Notes: generated from the letters alone by a model not told the origin. A DNA stretch of 64,000 nucleotides from a virus (IMGVR_UViG_3300044846_003573), one strand, 5' to 3'. Shown: positions 7,373-45,045, counted from the first letter of the stretch. Made by a program: numbers and translations.

Positions 7373-7720
7373 ATGAACCTACAAGAACACATAAAAAAAG
7401 TATTAAAAGAGGAGACGGGTGAAAGAACCAAACTTGAAAAGGTTATCACTAATGTTATCAACAGGTCATTAGATGGAAAAGAATTACCTGAAAACTTCCA
7501 TAGTGTTGTTGTTGATGTCTACGGAACAAAATACGGAGATGGTTGTATGATAACTTTATTGATGAAAAGGCCTTATAGTGAAGAAGAATCTGAAATGTTG
7601 TTTGATGTTAGTAGAGATGCTAAAAATTTAATTAAATCGTTCTTCAAAGAACATTTTCTTTATGGTATTAGTATTTCAACATCAACTATAGAAAATTACA
7701 TGAAGATGACAAGTGATTGA
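7373..7720 (+). CDS. MNLQE-leader protein, unknown function
   Basis: Starts MNLQEHIKKVLKEE. Confidence 0.7.
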   Translation: MNLQEHIKKVLKEETGERTKLEKVITNVINRSLDGKELPENFHSVVVDVYGTKYGDGCMITLLMKRPYSEEESEMLFDVSRDAKNLIKSFFKEHFLYGISISTSTIENYMKMTSD

Positions 7721-7731
7721 ATATTAATTAT

Positions 7732-8040
7732 ATGAACTTACAAGAACACATAAGAAGAGTATTAAAAGAGGAAACTGAAAAGTTTGATAAGATAGAACAT
7801 TTTATGAAAACTGCTAATACATTATTCAGCAAACTAAAATTTAAGGCTGTTAAACGTGTTGAGTTTGATTATGACGAAAGGATTGAAGGGTTTATTGTTA
7901 ATGTATTTTATGATAGACAATATGCGATAGATAATCCAAAAAATTTCAATCAAGTAAAACAAAACTTTATTAAAGAAATTGGTTCAATCATTACAAGGTT
8001 TTTCCCATTCAAATTTTATATTTATTTATATGACGACTAA
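7732..8040 (+). CDS. MNLQE-leader protein, unknown function
   Basis: Start moved to ATG at 7732: MNLQEHIRRVLKEE. Confidence 0.7.
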   Translation: MNLQEHIRRVLKEETEKFDKIEHFMKTANTLFSKLKFKAVKRVEFDYDERIEGFIVNVFYDRQYAIDNPKNFNQVKQNFIKEIGSIITRFFPFKFYIYLYDD

Positions 8041-8049
8041 TTATATATT

Positions 8050-8685
8050 ATGAACTTACACGAACACATAAAAAAAGTATTAAGAGAAGAGGTTAACAAG
8101 AAGTATTTGAAACCGAGTGAAAAATCCGAGAAATTTATTTTGGATAGATTGAATAGTATGGCTTCAGGTGCTGAAATATACCACGTTGAAAGTTATAAAA
8201 CAAGACACGATTTTGAGTTTTGTAAAAATGGAAAACAAATAATGAATCTCGCATTGTTCTTTGAAGAAACTGACGATAACACCCCAACGTCTGAAAGGAA
8301 ATTTGACTCTTCAACATTATCAGTACAAGAAGATTTTGTTGGTGGATTATTAGGGGCTTTTCCTGTTAGAAGAAATTATCTTTATTATATAATTGAAGAA
8401 TGGTTTGAAGATACTTTTTTAAGTAAAATCTCAAATATGATGGGTAGAAATGATATATCTGTTGAAGAATTATCATTTAATGATAGGTCATATACGTGTG
8501 TTCCACCAATTAATGAAGTACCTGAAGGAGTTACTCAAGACGAGATGATTAAGGTTATTATGAACAATACATTATGGCGTAAAAAAGATTTATTGGCGTT
8601 AGAAGAAAGAGAGCCTGGGTCTTTAGAATGGATGTATTTGAATAAACTTCGTAATAATGAGGTTAATAGATTAGATAATAGATAA
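8050..8685 (+). CDS. MNLQE-leader protein, unknown function
   Basis: Starts MNLHEHIKKVLREE. Confidence 0.7.
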   Translation: MNLHEHIKKVLREEVNKKYLKPSEKSEKFILDRLNSMASGAEIYHVESYKTRHDFEFCKNGKQIMNLALFFEETDDNTPTSERKFDSSTLSVQEDFVGGLLGAFPVRRNYLYYIIEEWFEDTFLSKISNMMGRNDISVEELSFNDRSYTCVPPINEVPEGVTQDEMIKVIMNNTLWRKKDLLALEEREPGSLEWMYLNKLRNNEVNRLDNR

Positions 8686-8686
8686 T

Positions 8687-8968
8687 ATGAACCTACAGGA
8701 ACAAATAAGAATAGTATTAAGGGAAGTAGTTAATGAATCCAAAGGTTGGAGTGATTCAAAGCAAAAATTAGAAAGAACTTTTAAATTCAAAGATTTTAAT
8801 GAATCAATGGGATTTGTTAATAAAGTTGCGAAGATTGCCGAATCACAAAATCATCATCCCGATATTAAAATAAATTACAACAAAGTAAAATTATCAATAA
8901 CTGACCACGAAAAGGGTGGGGTATCTGAAAAATGTCATAAATTGGTAAAGGCTATTGATAAACTCTAA
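8687..8968 (+). CDS. phhB: Pterin-4-alpha-carbinolamine dehydratase-like domain with MNLQE leader
   Basis: KLERTFKFKDFNESMGFVNKVAKIAESQNHHPDI...YNKV...TDHEKGGVSE. Confidence 0.8.
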   Translation: MNLQEQIRIVLREVVNESKGWSDSKQKLERTFKFKDFNESMGFVNKVAKIAESQNHHPDIKINYNKVKLSITDHEKGGVSEKCHKLVKAIDKL

Positions 8969-8972
8969 CAAT

Positions 8973-42709: not shown

Positions 42710-42710
42710 A

Positions 42711-43250
42711 TTATTTTAAAGTTTTATTTGAAAGAATACCAACAATATAGACTGAATTGAATTTATTTACCCCAACTTGGAAATTAACTTTTGTTAGTTT
42801 TTTTTCATCCATAATTTTTCTATGTGAGTCTGATTTCATAAAAGCGTTAAATAATCTTCTTGCAAGTTCTTTATTATTTTGTTTGTGTAAAGTTTTTCCT
42901 GTTCCTATTAAAGAAATTACTTCACCCAAATCAGTATTAGAATTTGATTCTTCCGCCATTTTAGGGTAAAAGAAAGTATATCTATCGGTTAATGAATAAA
43001 ATTTAGAACCTACTTCTTGTTTATGTGAAACGTCGTCAAAATCTTTAAGATAATTTAACTGACATTCAGTTAGACAAAGTAAAGAATTATCTTCAGATAT
43101 TTTATGACCCAAACTATCACATCTTTTGTAATAAAGAATCATAAATTCTTTTTGAATTTCTTTCAAATTGATGTGACTTGGTAATTGTGATTGAGAAAAA
43201 CCAAGAACAGACATTGTAATGAAACATACTGAAAGAAATAAGTTTTTCAT
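42711..43250 (-). CDS. Secreted CAP/SCP-like protein
   Basis: Signal peptide MKNLFLSVCFITMSVLGFS-Q; AFMKSDSHRKIM resembles the CAP motif WMxSxxHRxNI. Confidence 0.5.
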   Translation of the reverse strand: MKNLFLSVCFITMSVLGFSQSQLPSHINLKEIQKEFMILYYKRCDSLGHKISEDNSLLCLTECQLNYLKDFDDVSHKQEVGSKFYSLTDRYTFFYPKMAEESNSNTDLGEVISLIGTGKTLHKQNNKELARRLFNAFMKSDSHRKIMDEKKLTKVNFQVGVNKFNSVYIVGILSNKTLK

Positions 43251-43364
43251 AGGACTTGATTATTTAATTATTAATACAAATATATACAAAATATTCCTCC
43301 ACACAAATATATTTATAAATAAAGTGAACCTTGTTCATAAACTTTAAACCCACATTAATGGATA

Positions 43365-43568
43365 ATGACAAAAATGAAACGAATTCTAAAGGAAAATGTT
43401 GCCACCTATTGCCTTATGCTCGCAATGTTTTTCAACCCACTAGGATTCGACATAATGTTCAAAGCAATTTTAGACTACACAAGTTCTTATTGGATTACCA
43501 CAGGAATTTTTTACTGTATTTCAGCATTGTTATTTGGGTTGTATTTCTTATTACGAAGTAAAAAATGA
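43365..43568 (+). CDS. Small 2-TM membrane protein
   Basis: Two hydrophobic segments. Confidence 0.6.
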   Translation: MTKMKRILKENVATYCLMLAMFFNPLGFDIMFKAILDYTSSYWITTGIFYCISALLFGLYFLLRSKK

Positions 43569-44164
43569 ATATCAAAAAACTTATCAAAAAAGTTCTTACA
43601 GAATCAGTGGAGAAACCACTTATTTCAGAACATCTTAATTATCATGTGACAAATGATATACCACTAAACGATAACATCTTCAGATTTGGTTCAGAAGAGT
43701 TCTTTAATGTTATTAATGAAGGTCGTGAGTTATATTTTGAAGGAATGGTAGAATTAAGTGAAGACGATGTTGAACTTGTTGAATCTGACTTTGGAAAACA
43801 AGTAACTTTATCAAGTGGTAGAGTTGTTTTCTTGGATACTCCGATGGAAGAATCATTTATTTCTGAAGCTGAACATAATGGAAAGAAAGTTGAACTTGGT
43901 AAACCAAGAAGAAATAGTGGTGGTGGAAAGAAATATGTTGTTTATGTAAAGAACCCGTCAACAGGTAGAGTTAAGAAGATTTCATTTGGTGATGTTCATG
44001 GTGGTTTAACTGCTAAGGTATCTAACCCTAAAGCTCGTAAATCATTTGCCGCAAGACATCAGTGTTCTAAGAAAAAAGATAGATTAACTGCCGGATATTG
44101 GGCATGTCGTTTAAACCGTTTTGGTTATTTGTGGGGTGGTAAAACTTATACAGGATTTTGGTAA
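43565..44164 (+). CDS. DUF6321-like protein
   Basis: KKYVVYVKNPSTGRVKKISFGD...RKSFAARHQC...AGYWACR; family name recalled from memory. Confidence 0.6.
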   Translation: MNIKKLIKKVLTESVEKPLISEHLNYHVTNDIPLNDNIFRFGSEEFFNVINEGRELYFEGMVELSEDDVELVESDFGKQVTLSSGRVVFLDTPMEESFISEAEHNGKKVELGKPRRNSGGGKKYVVYVKNPSTGRVKKISFGDVHGGLTAKVSNPKARKSFAARHQCSKKKDRLTAGYWACRLNRFGYLWGGKTYTGFW

Positions 44165-44165
44165 T

Positions 44166-44432
44166 ATGAAACCGTATAAAGATAGAAAATTAACAGAAAC
44201 TTCAAAAATTAGAGTTTTTAAATCCGATGTTGATAGTGGTGAACTACAATGGCATCGTGATAGAGAAGATAGATTGATTGAAGTTGTTCAGGGTAATGGA
44301 TGGAAATTTCAAATGGATAATCAACTACCTATAGAGTTAACTGAAGGACAAGTATTATTAATTCCTGAAGGAACTTATCACAGAATATTCAGAGGAACGT
44401 CTGATTTGGAATTAAAGATTGATTTTATTTAG
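44166..44432 (+). CDS. Cupin-like protein
   Basis: ELQWHRDREDR...GWKFQMDN..P...LIPEGTYHRI. Confidence 0.6.
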   Translation: MKPYKDRKLTETSKIRVFKSDVDSGELQWHRDREDRLIEVVQGNGWKFQMDNQLPIELTEGQVLLIPEGTYHRIFRGTSDLELKIDFI

Positions 44433-45045
44433 TAATCCTATCAACGATTAAATCCATAAGTCGTTTTAAGAAATTACCTGAAATTGTTATTAATCCAAAT
44501 GCTGATAATGATTTAACTAACATTTCAGTATCTTTCATATCCCATATACCCTCAGAAACTGCATCATATATCATTGGTATGATTGGAACCAAGAATGCGT
44601 AACTTAACATATTTGTCACACTGAATGCTGATAAATTCAAACTCTTTAAAAAACCTGCTAAAACAGTTTTAAGTTGATTGGCTTTAATTGCTCCCAATTT
44701 AAATGGACCTTCAAGTCCGTCTTCTTTAATTTTTTCAATAATTGATTTGGTAAAATTTCTTTCTTGAAAGAATATTACTGACGCAATACCGGCTGCAATC
44801 AATGATGAATCTTTTTCTGTTAACTCAGGTACTTGTCCATTTAACCATTGCATGATTGGACCCATAAACCCTCCGATTGCCGCACCCCATGTGAGCATCA
44901 TCTTTAAGTTTATTGAAACATGAGTTTTCGTGTCTTCAACAATCTTTTTAGTTAGTTCAACACCATCTTCTTGAACTTCTTTAATCCTATCATTTATTGC
45001 TTCAAGGATAATTTGCTTTTGAGATTCTTTAATTATATATTTCAT
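44425..45045 (-). CDS. MKYLITE-like leader membrane protein
   Basis: MKYIIKESQKQIILE; several hydrophobic segments. Confidence 0.65.
   Translation of the reverse strand: MKYIIKESQKQIILEAINDRIKEVQEDGVELTKKIVEDTKTHVSINLKMMLTWGAAIGGFMGPIMQWLNGQVPELTEKDSSLIAAGIASVIFFQERNFTKSIIEKIKEDGLEGPFKLGAIKANQLKTVLAGFLKSLNLSAFSVTNMLSYAFLVPIIPMIYDAVSEGIWDMKDTEMLVKSLSAFGLITISGNFLKRLMDLIVDRITK

Follow-up and report, generated by a model that had tools for sequence, protein, structure and literature searches.

The 64,000-nucleotide (nt) stretch of the virus IMGVR_UViG_3300044846_003573 analyzed here (the window, at its full length) is AT-rich (~30% G+C), carries short, tightly packed genes, and encodes dozens of proteins that start with a short conserved peptide, hereafter the tag, which ends in Leu/Ile/Val-x-Glu. 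These tags are probably capsid-targeting and processing leaders of the kind known from phage T4, expanded to dozens of cargo proteins per genome. We infer docking, cleavage, packaging, and injection of the cargo from sequence, and a cargo set far larger than that of T4 is plausible. The source of the window appears to be an uncultured T4-like jumbo phage of ~300 kb from a lake, with a T4-type head module. Published work already covers the T4 capsid-targeting sequence (CTS) and proposes that it enables T4-like phages to load a variety of proteins (PMC9026906, PMC3012670).

Translation of all open reading frames (ORFs) and six-frame motif scans of the window gave three types of tag. Type A (MNLQE.I..VL.EE) starts nine genes, all on the + strand; type B (MKY[LIV]ITE[SN][QK] or near variants, MKYLITESQ-like) starts 18; and type C (MKK.V[RK]LTESDL..IVKRVI.E) starts nine, again all on the + strand. 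The 9, 18, and 9 genes listed in a preliminary description of this sequence were thus recovered exactly, and the looser versions that it had placed at 3235, 5369, 35467, 47568, and 49828 are all present; with 43565, which was added, six further genes carry a loose tag. Leader hidden Markov models (HMMs) separated the members (E 1e-8 to 1e-17) from the next candidates (E > 0.01) among the 445 candidate N-termini of the window. The proposed Leu/Ile/Val-x-Glu end also holds: a first [LIV]-x-E site ends at residue 5–11 in 34 of the 36 strict tagged proteins, and a second one at residue 12–23 in all 18 A and C proteins. The hallmark of a Sec or Tat signal peptide, a hydrophobic core of at least 10 residues after a basic start, was found in none of the tag sequences. 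A secretion signal was rejected, the tags being charged and amphipathic, with K, R, E, or D every 2–4 residues and no hydrophobic run.

The conservation of the tags acts on the peptide. Invariant residues are encoded by two to four synonymous codons (Leu by CTA, CTT, TTA, or TTG; Thr by ACA, ACG, or ACT; Ile by ATA, ATC, or ATT), and column information, 4.3 bits at the final Glu (E22 of C, E13 of A), drops to less than 2 bits just beyond it. It is because the codons vary at invariant positions and the conservation ends after this Glu that we place it at the protein level, and a pure DNA repeat, with amino acids constant and codons varying, is ruled out. The three types appear to be forms of one tag. 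In hhalign comparisons, B aligns with positions 1–22 of C (P 0.003) and A with positions 10–25 (P 0.02), statistics that are weak, as expected for 15–25 residues. Ten of the 13 best non-C N-termini that the C model finds in the window belong to A, B, or loose members, and two genes are intermediates between tag types, namely 43565 and the plain B/C intermediate 37249 (MKKFIITENQLEFIVKRYLNE). Since B and A fall on the two parts of C and 37249 stands between B and C, C can be read as the full bipartite tag of 22 residues, in which box 1 would be a basic start followed by L-T-E and box 2 an amphipathic stretch, L..IVKRVI.E; B would then consist of box 1 and a decayed box 2, and A of box 2 alone. 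A cargo can exchange its tag: 43565, A-like tagged here, has a body 37% identical over 134 residues to a C-tagged protein of the related genome G004, and the cargo of the B-tagged gene 27307 has an untagged paralog in another relative, G002. Of the three interchangeable leaders described earlier, interchangeability is therefore seen on one cargo (43565 and its G004 homolog), but the alignments and intermediates make the leaders one family rather than three independent ones.

Gene 57891 retrieved 25 loci from IMG/VR, and the head module was read in relatives of the window. The 242-kb contig G001 is collinear with 22.6–64 kb of the window at ~90% nt identity, and by this collinearity the head module is expected ~8 kb past the end of the window. 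A Peptidase_S77 gene, of the family of the T4 prohead protease gp21, is present in G001 and G002 (PF03420, E 9e-28, 94 bits vs. a cut-off of 27), and the G001 protease matches the solved structure of T4 gp21 (PDB 5jbl) with E 4e-18 over residues 35–199. The head region of G001 encodes TerL, a portal protein, two small core proteins, the Peptidase_S77, a very acidic scaffold-like protein of 472 amino acids (aa), and a Gp23-family capsid protein of 616 aa, and the order from portal through capsid protein is that of T4 genes 20-67-68-21-22-23. The closest cultured capsid protein, at 41% identity, is that of Flavobacterium phage immuto, which also has a T4-type module; the C tag was not found in immuto. 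A second capsid-like (gp24) gene that might carry a tag was not found.

T4 gp23 is cleaved between E65 and A66, and both columns are invariant in an alignment of the N-terminal 120 residues of the T4, G001, and immuto capsid proteins, which read FLINE/A in G001 and IVSE/A in immuto (stroke at the E65/A66 position). The FLINE/A junction has the same P3–P1 pattern as the tag end VI.E (VINE/S). Since gp21 cleaves after L/I-x-E (PMC9026906), the capsid propeptide junction indirectly predicts that this specificity is conserved in the lineage. In 164 distinct tags from metagenome matches, anchored without a Glu requirement, site 1 reads L (160)-T (154)-E (164/164) and site 2 I (152)-x-E (163/164), with N, K, S, E, R, or Q in the x position; the tags are high-scoring matches, and this invariance is partly a matter of ascertainment. 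Asp occurs at P1 of neither site in the 164 tags, and the neighboring D11 tolerates E, Q, and N. A hydrophobic P3, a free P2, and a strict Glu at P1 are what a Glu-specific protease would impose. T4 IPIII needs no more than its first ten residues to be packaged; its processing depends on residues 8 and 10 and is blocked by Asp at position 10 (P1) (PMC9026906). Residues 17–19 of the protease read L-I-E in G001 (L037:13292-14011, − strand) and L-V-E in G004 (300317-301042, + strand), reminiscent of LIE-9, a site that T4 gp21 has close to its N-terminus (PMC9026906). A predicted complex of a C tag (residues 1–45 of 23186) with the G001 protease and scaffold scored 0.00, with the partner poorly folded, and weighs neither for nor against an interaction.

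The nine C tags were built into a 30-column profile, which matched 7,191 protein clusters at E ≤ 0.001 and 237 at E ≤ 1e-10 in a search of 1.84 billion cluster representatives. Within the best 150 of the 7,191, the match starts at residue 1–4 in 137, and 41 hold two or three tag copies, a ranking that favors multi-copy proteins. Examples of such proteins carry a tag before each module, two in tandem, or one at both ends; the C-terminal copy in P0013 is part of a gene that lies whole within its contig, and a diverged homolog has retained this copy. When the C tag was searched as a degenerate DNA pattern, more than 118 IMG/VR stretches matched, and among the matches listed, Peptidase_S77 is found in 11 of 24 large tag-bearing contigs: in all five genomes at least 90% complete (294–322 kb) and in six of 19 fragments, roughly in proportion to their completeness. 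The complete genome G004 (321 kb, terminal repeats) has ~70% nt identity in shared genes and holds 22–25 tagged genes of all three types, including an A-tagged gene directly after the capsid gene and a C-tagged one in the structural region. Small conserved structural-region genes with tag-like starts occur in both G001 (L037:6668-8362, + strand) and G004 (1709-2675, + strand); the G001 starts read MKKIKLKENEYIKLLKFVLSE, ..NLIKQVLKEQ, and ..QIKKAIKEM, and the G004 ortholog of the MKKIKLKENEYIKLLKFVLSE gene has a full C tag. Searches of the window genes against cultured phages by blastn and tblastn gave no close relative, and tblastn of a 27-aa C tag against 50,697 phage records gave no match. 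These tag sequences were found in no paper of the library searched, and the literature found there on capsid targeting in jumbo phages comprises only work on T4 and phiKZ/SPN3US.

Stripped of their tags, the 42 bodies form 36 BLASTP groups, and the 36 strict members form 30, the sole multi-member group being seven B paralogs; the tagged proteins range from 92 to 744 aa. Recognizable domains begin just past the tag (Pterin_4a at residue 13 of 8687, DUF2237 at residue 20 of 8973), and for this reason the tag is an add-on to folds that are otherwise complete. The fusion of PPK2 with a phage lysozyme (35467) and the endolysin/GH19-like body (3235-4146) are wall-hydrolase cargo and would fit virion-borne wall hydrolases. 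Most tagged bodies had no match in Pfam or PHROGs, and an Atlas look-up of 41253 (466 aa) was uninformative. The B paralog family counts 19 sequences in three genomes, in which M1, K2, Y3, I5, T6, E7, and S8 are invariant and the bodies are ~45% identical; against it, HHalign gave a probability of 86% to 15735, a weak 14% to 27634, and less than 3% to most bodies. The earlier statement that the cargo is unrelated and includes real enzyme folds is thus borne out by the 30 groups and the different Pfam folds, but not for the seven B paralogs, nor for 15735, which joins them by HHalign. An AlphaFold2 (AF2) model of the family (18916..19245) has a pLDDT of 90.6 and no secondary structure in residues 1–6; it matched no PDB structure, and it matched nine BFVD predicted structures of “uncultured Caudovirales phage” proteins at 13–44% identity. 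Some B cargos that are unrelated by BLAST may therefore share one fold.

The motif RTATTTAT occurs 50 times in the window against ~25 expected, and 41 of the copies lie 12–49 nt before an ATG-initiated ORF, with spacings to start codons of 12–15 or 20–26 nt (examples on the + strand at 13957, 23173, 25900, 26572, 31413, 35455, 49806, 55677, and 57869; on the − strand at 14652, 16746, 19258, and 45060). It precedes 19 of 34 tagged genes, mostly 12–15 nt before the ATG, vs. 17 of 73 other ORFs (p 0.002), and in G004 12 of 22 tagged genes vs. 84 of 325 others. The position implies very short 5′ untranslated regions (UTRs), and the motif may be the phage's own, perhaps late, promoter. Because it also precedes the terminase, portal, core, protease, and scaffold genes in G001 and G004, the pattern fits co-expression of the tagged genes with the head genes. 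Breakpoints in the homology between the window and G002 or G001 lie only a few bases from the ATG of tagged genes: G002 lacks one B cassette between 24246 and 24595 and one C cassette between 31429 and 32139, and at 25283, 25924, and 23164 it either carries additional tagged genes or is short of one. Since the breaks fall at the starts of tagged genes, these behave as single-gene cassettes swapped at a conserved promoter-plus-tag start. The indels at 23164-32139 relative to G002 (L180-L181) and G001 (L039-L040) add or remove exactly one tagged gene.

The T4 CTS is carried by the internal proteins IPI, IPII, and IPIII and by Alt, and is removed by gp21 (PMC9026906, PMC3012670); a sequence comparison finds the identical 10-residue MKTYQEFIAE on two unrelated T4 proteins. 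The tag resembles it as a short N-terminal leader on otherwise unrelated proteins that ends in hydrophobic-x-Glu, in a lineage with a gp21-family protease and a T4-order head module. The ip loci of T-even phages are polymorphic (hyperplastic), as are the loci here; T4-type internal proteins are diverse, and only the CTS is conserved (PMC3012670). T4 Alt has propeptides at both ends (PMC9026906), and some proteins here have tags at both ends. Unlike the T4 CTS, the tag is up to 22 residues long and bipartite, with two candidate cut sites; it marks dozens of genes per genome vs. a handful in T4 and thousands of cargo clusters in metagenomes, and it also occurs inside multi-module proteins. Packaging into the virion is established for the T4 proteins, whereas that of the tagged proteins is a prediction from sequence. 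In the jumbo phages phiKZ, 201phi2-1, and SPN3US, propeptide-bearing ejection or inner-body proteins are processed by gp175/gp245 (PMC9026906, PMC10052503). There, too, many different head proteins are involved, paralog families occur among the cargo, and a diverged gp21 homolog cleaves after Glu. However, the cut is at S/A/G-x-E, the propeptides are long and non-uniform in contrast to the one short shared tag, and the head module is not in T4 order, whereas the lineage studied here has a clear Peptidase_S77 and Leu, Ile, or Val at P3. The mobile single-gene cassettes of T4-type phages are likewise small accessory genes beside a conserved promoter-proximal sequence, gained or lost singly, but the joint here reaches into the coding region as a selected peptide. 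Encapsulin cargo-loading peptides are short terminal peptides that address diverse enzymes into an HK97-fold shell; they are usually C-terminal, bind the shell protein, and stay uncleaved, and no DNA is packaged and nothing injected. The tags share with them the short terminal address for diverse enzymes and differ in being mostly N-terminal and predicted to be cleaved.

Several observations weigh against capsid targeting. The protease and head module were read in relatives, beyond the end of the window, and the co-occurrence of tag and Peptidase_S77 is confounded by common descent, as the contigs look like one phage group. Homology of the tags to the T4 CTS MKTYQEFIAE is not detectable in sequence, and the likeness is one of pattern only (LQEHI vs. 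YQEFI). A pterin dehydratase, a DUF2237 protein, and a PPK2 are odd proteins to inject. RTATTTAT is not exclusive, preceding about a quarter of the other ORFs. In 26,640 residues of cargo bodies, [LI]-x-E is depleted (z −2.1), and the control patterns [LI]E and [LI]..E are equally depleted; the depletion was dropped as a signal, not being specific. The box-2 helix (residues 7–20) belongs to the globular fold in the B-family AF2 model, which leaves only ~7 residues that could be removed as a tag; Y-L-D stands at the second site. Cut after I-T-E, these ~7 residues would be similar in size to the ten of T4. The capsid-targeting reading proposed in the preliminary description is partly supported. 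Most of its computational predictions were borne out, namely the gp21-family protease in a T4-order head module, the I-N-E/A junction, the strict Glu at P1, the shared promoter-like motif, and the hyperplastic loci; it is limited by the reading of the protease in relatives, the paralogy of some cargos, and the merging of three leaders into one family.

The same data can be read in other ways. The tag may be a docking helix for another shared partner, be it a phage chaperone or unfoldase (the ClpB-like protein encoded at 59835-61943, for example), a target in the host, or a site of sorting or assembly within the cell, with [LIV]-x-E incidental to an amphipathic Lys/Glu-rich helix. This seems unlikely, although the tag is portable among N-terminal, internal, and C-terminal positions, metabolic enzymes as cargo would suit an intracellular role better, a ClpB-like ATPase is encoded nearby, and box 2 is modeled as a helix packed into the fold in the B family. 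With P2 free, Glu is strictly kept at P1 of both sites to the exclusion of Asp, as a Glu-specific protease would require and beyond the needs of a helix; moreover, the conservation ends exactly at the Glu, the capsid propeptide junction shares the P3–P1 pattern, and a gp21-type protease is present in every complete tag-bearing genome among the matches listed. It is highly improbable that the peptide is functionless and the conserved gene start mainly a DNA- or expression-level cassette joint, with promoter, start codon, and first codons retained through recombination that moves genes at this point and through efficient translation from a short A-rich start in a host without Shine-Dalgarno use. 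Strain indels do have their boundaries at the start codons (ATG) of tagged genes, and the promoter-like motif 12–15 nt upstream leaves almost no 5′ UTR, but amino acids stay invariant where codons vary, the conservation covers 22 residues across 7,191 protein clusters, and tags recur internally and at the C-terminal end, far from any promoter. We give just as little credence to the view that the genes belong to one multigene family, or to a small number of them, evolving rapidly, with the N-terminus just the best-conserved part and the unrelated cargo an artefact of divergence. The Pterin_4a, DUF2237, PPK2-plus-lysozyme, and GH19-like bodies, the sizes of 92 to 744 aa, the probabilities below 3% of most bodies against the B family, the cargo family that is A-like tagged here and C-tagged in G004, and the untagged paralog of a tagged cargo all speak against it, even though the seven B genes are clear paralogs with 19 members across three genomes, 15735 and weakly 27634 (14%) join them by HHalign, and nine BFVD uncultured-phage proteins share the B fold at 13–44% identity.

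Table 1. Tagged genes of the window (nt positions), with the loose members last.
Position	Strand	Length (aa)	Feature	Basis
7373..7720	+	115	A-type tag, MNLQEHIKKVLKEE	Motif scan, HMM
7732..8040	+	102	A-type tag	Motif scan, HMM
8050..8685	+	211	A-type tag	MNLHE variant
8687..8968	+	93	A-type tag + Pterin_4a (PCD)	Pfam PF01329 E 2.6e-25, domain from residue 13
8973..9455	+	160	A-type tag (loose box 2) + DUF2237	Pfam PF09996 E 2.4e-40, domain from residue 20
9457..9939	+	160	C-type tag	Motif scan
9936..10367	+	143	A-type tag	Motif scan
10369..10989	+	206	A-type tag; A-tagged homolog in G004	Motif scan, comparison with G004
13232..13570	−	112	B-type tag, paralog family	Motif scan, BLASTP
13567..13938	−	123	B-type tag	Motif scan
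13971..14294	+	107	A-type tag	Motif scan; RTATTTAT 14 nt upstream
14283..14639	−	118	B-type tag	Motif scan
14656..15066	−	136	B-type tag	Motif scan
15079..15411	−	110	B-type tag, paralog family	Motif scan, BLASTP
15415..15735	−	106	B-type tag, distant paralog-family member	Motif scan, HHalign
15769..16098	+	109	A-type tag (MNLKE)	Motif scan
16102..16380	−	92	B-type tag	Motif scan
16380..16733	−	117	B-type tag, paralog family	Motif scan, BLASTP
16733..17068	−	111	B-type tag, paralog family	Motif scan, BLASTP
17081..17395	−	104	B-type tag, paralog family	Motif scan, BLASTP
18916..19245	−	109	B-type tag, paralog family	Folded: AF2 pLDDT 90.6
23186..23527	+	113	C-type tag; absent from G002	Motif scan, comparison with G002
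24238..24597	+	119	B-type tag; whole cassette absent from G002	Homology break 24246, resumption 24595
24599..24991	+	130	B-type variant (MKYKITKEQ)	HMM
25275..25847	+	190	C-type tag	Motif scan
25914..26570	+	218	C-type tag	Motif scan
26586..27293	+	235	C-type tag	Motif scan
27307..27618	+	103	B-type tag; untagged paralog in G002	Motif scan, comparison with G002
27634..27945	+	103	B-type tag with C-like box 2	Motif scan, C model
31425..32126	+	233	C-type tag; cassette absent from G002	Break 31429 / 32139
32139..32486	+	115	B-type variant (MKYIIDQKQ; without early L/I-x-E)	Motif scan
34132..34704	+	190	C-type tag (2 extra residues)	Motif scan
34730..35146	+	138	C-type tag	Motif scan
37249..37566	+	105	B/C intermediate tag (MKKFIITENQLEFIVKRYLNE)	15.5 bits with C model
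41253..42653	+	466	C-type tag, no family	Motif scan; no family match
44425..45045	−	206	B-type variant (MKYIIKESQ)	Motif scan
3235..4146	−	303	Loose tag + endolysin/GH19-like body	phrog_181 E 1e-30; ISE and LNE sites
5369..5668	+	99	Loose tag (MTKLTE..IRE)	Sequence of start
35467..37233	+	588	Loose tag + PPK2 + phage lysozyme	Pfam PF03976 2.7e-70, PF00959 6e-19; LTE twice
43565..44164	+	199	A-like tag (MNIKKLIKKVLTE); C-tagged homolog in G004	Sequence of start, G004 comparison
47568..49802	+	744	Loose tag, no family	Sequence of start
49828..51213	+	461	Loose tag, no family	Sequence of start

Beside the tagged genes, the window holds four paralogs at 11043-13201 and 19276-20070 (− strand) that start with MKVTDRLKQ.IFK.LYKELG, continue as internally repetitive coding sequence, and form a separate family without the tag. 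A 631-aa ORF at 51210-53105 (+ strand), which begins with tandem ELPKKGDGTK repeats, follows the two large, loosely tagged genes 47568 and 49828, both without a family match. Auxiliary genes encode a glutamine-synthetase-like protein (417-1436, + strand), the PPK2-lysozyme fusion (35467-37233, + strand), and the ClpB-like double AAA+ ATPase (59835-61943, − strand), whose closest phage matches are in uncultured phages of 630–640 kb. There is a tRNA-Arg(TCT) at 54133-54209 (+ strand) and a tmRNA at 57421-57815 (− strand; Rfam, 136 bits), the tag peptide of which ends in ...EEVTVA. The region 20100-22300 has a higher G+C content (0.35), no convincing ORF, and no Rfam match.

Under the capsid-targeting reading, the tagged proteins would be made together with the head proteins, and the tag would dock the cargo onto the scaffolding core of the assembling prohead, where the gp21-family prohead protease would cleave one [LIV]-x-E site or both, just past the Glu. 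Once freed, the cargos, which comprise cell-wall hydrolases and a few enzymes besides small proteins of no known function, would remain in the head until infection and then exit with the DNA, as three proteins do in T4. Each gene would be a cassette with its own promoter-like motif and tag, which is gained, lost, or re-tagged by recombination at the gene start, and recombination at this conserved start would give each strain its own cargo set. Taken to its full extent, an idea that we advance only tentatively, this describes a cosmopolitan group of T4-like jumbo phages of ~300 kb in which each virion would be loaded, through one modular bipartite tag, with dozens of proteins from a pool of more than 7,000 cargo families; the set would differ between strains and include enzymes and protease-cut multi-module polyproteins, with single-gene cassettes re-tagged and exchanged. 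Such a phage head would serve as a general vehicle for protein delivery, on a scale undescribed for cultured phages. IPI* of T4, from the class of injected internal proteins, is an anti-restriction protein. If the tags act like the T4 CTS, sequence alone would label the proteins that a widespread group of uncultured jumbo phages injects as infection begins, and thousands of “hypothetical proteins” would become searchable candidates for anti-defence and host-takeover functions. The tag would also provide a natural 22-residue means of loading proteins into large capsids, and cassette turnover at the tag would show how the arsenal is reshuffled between strains.

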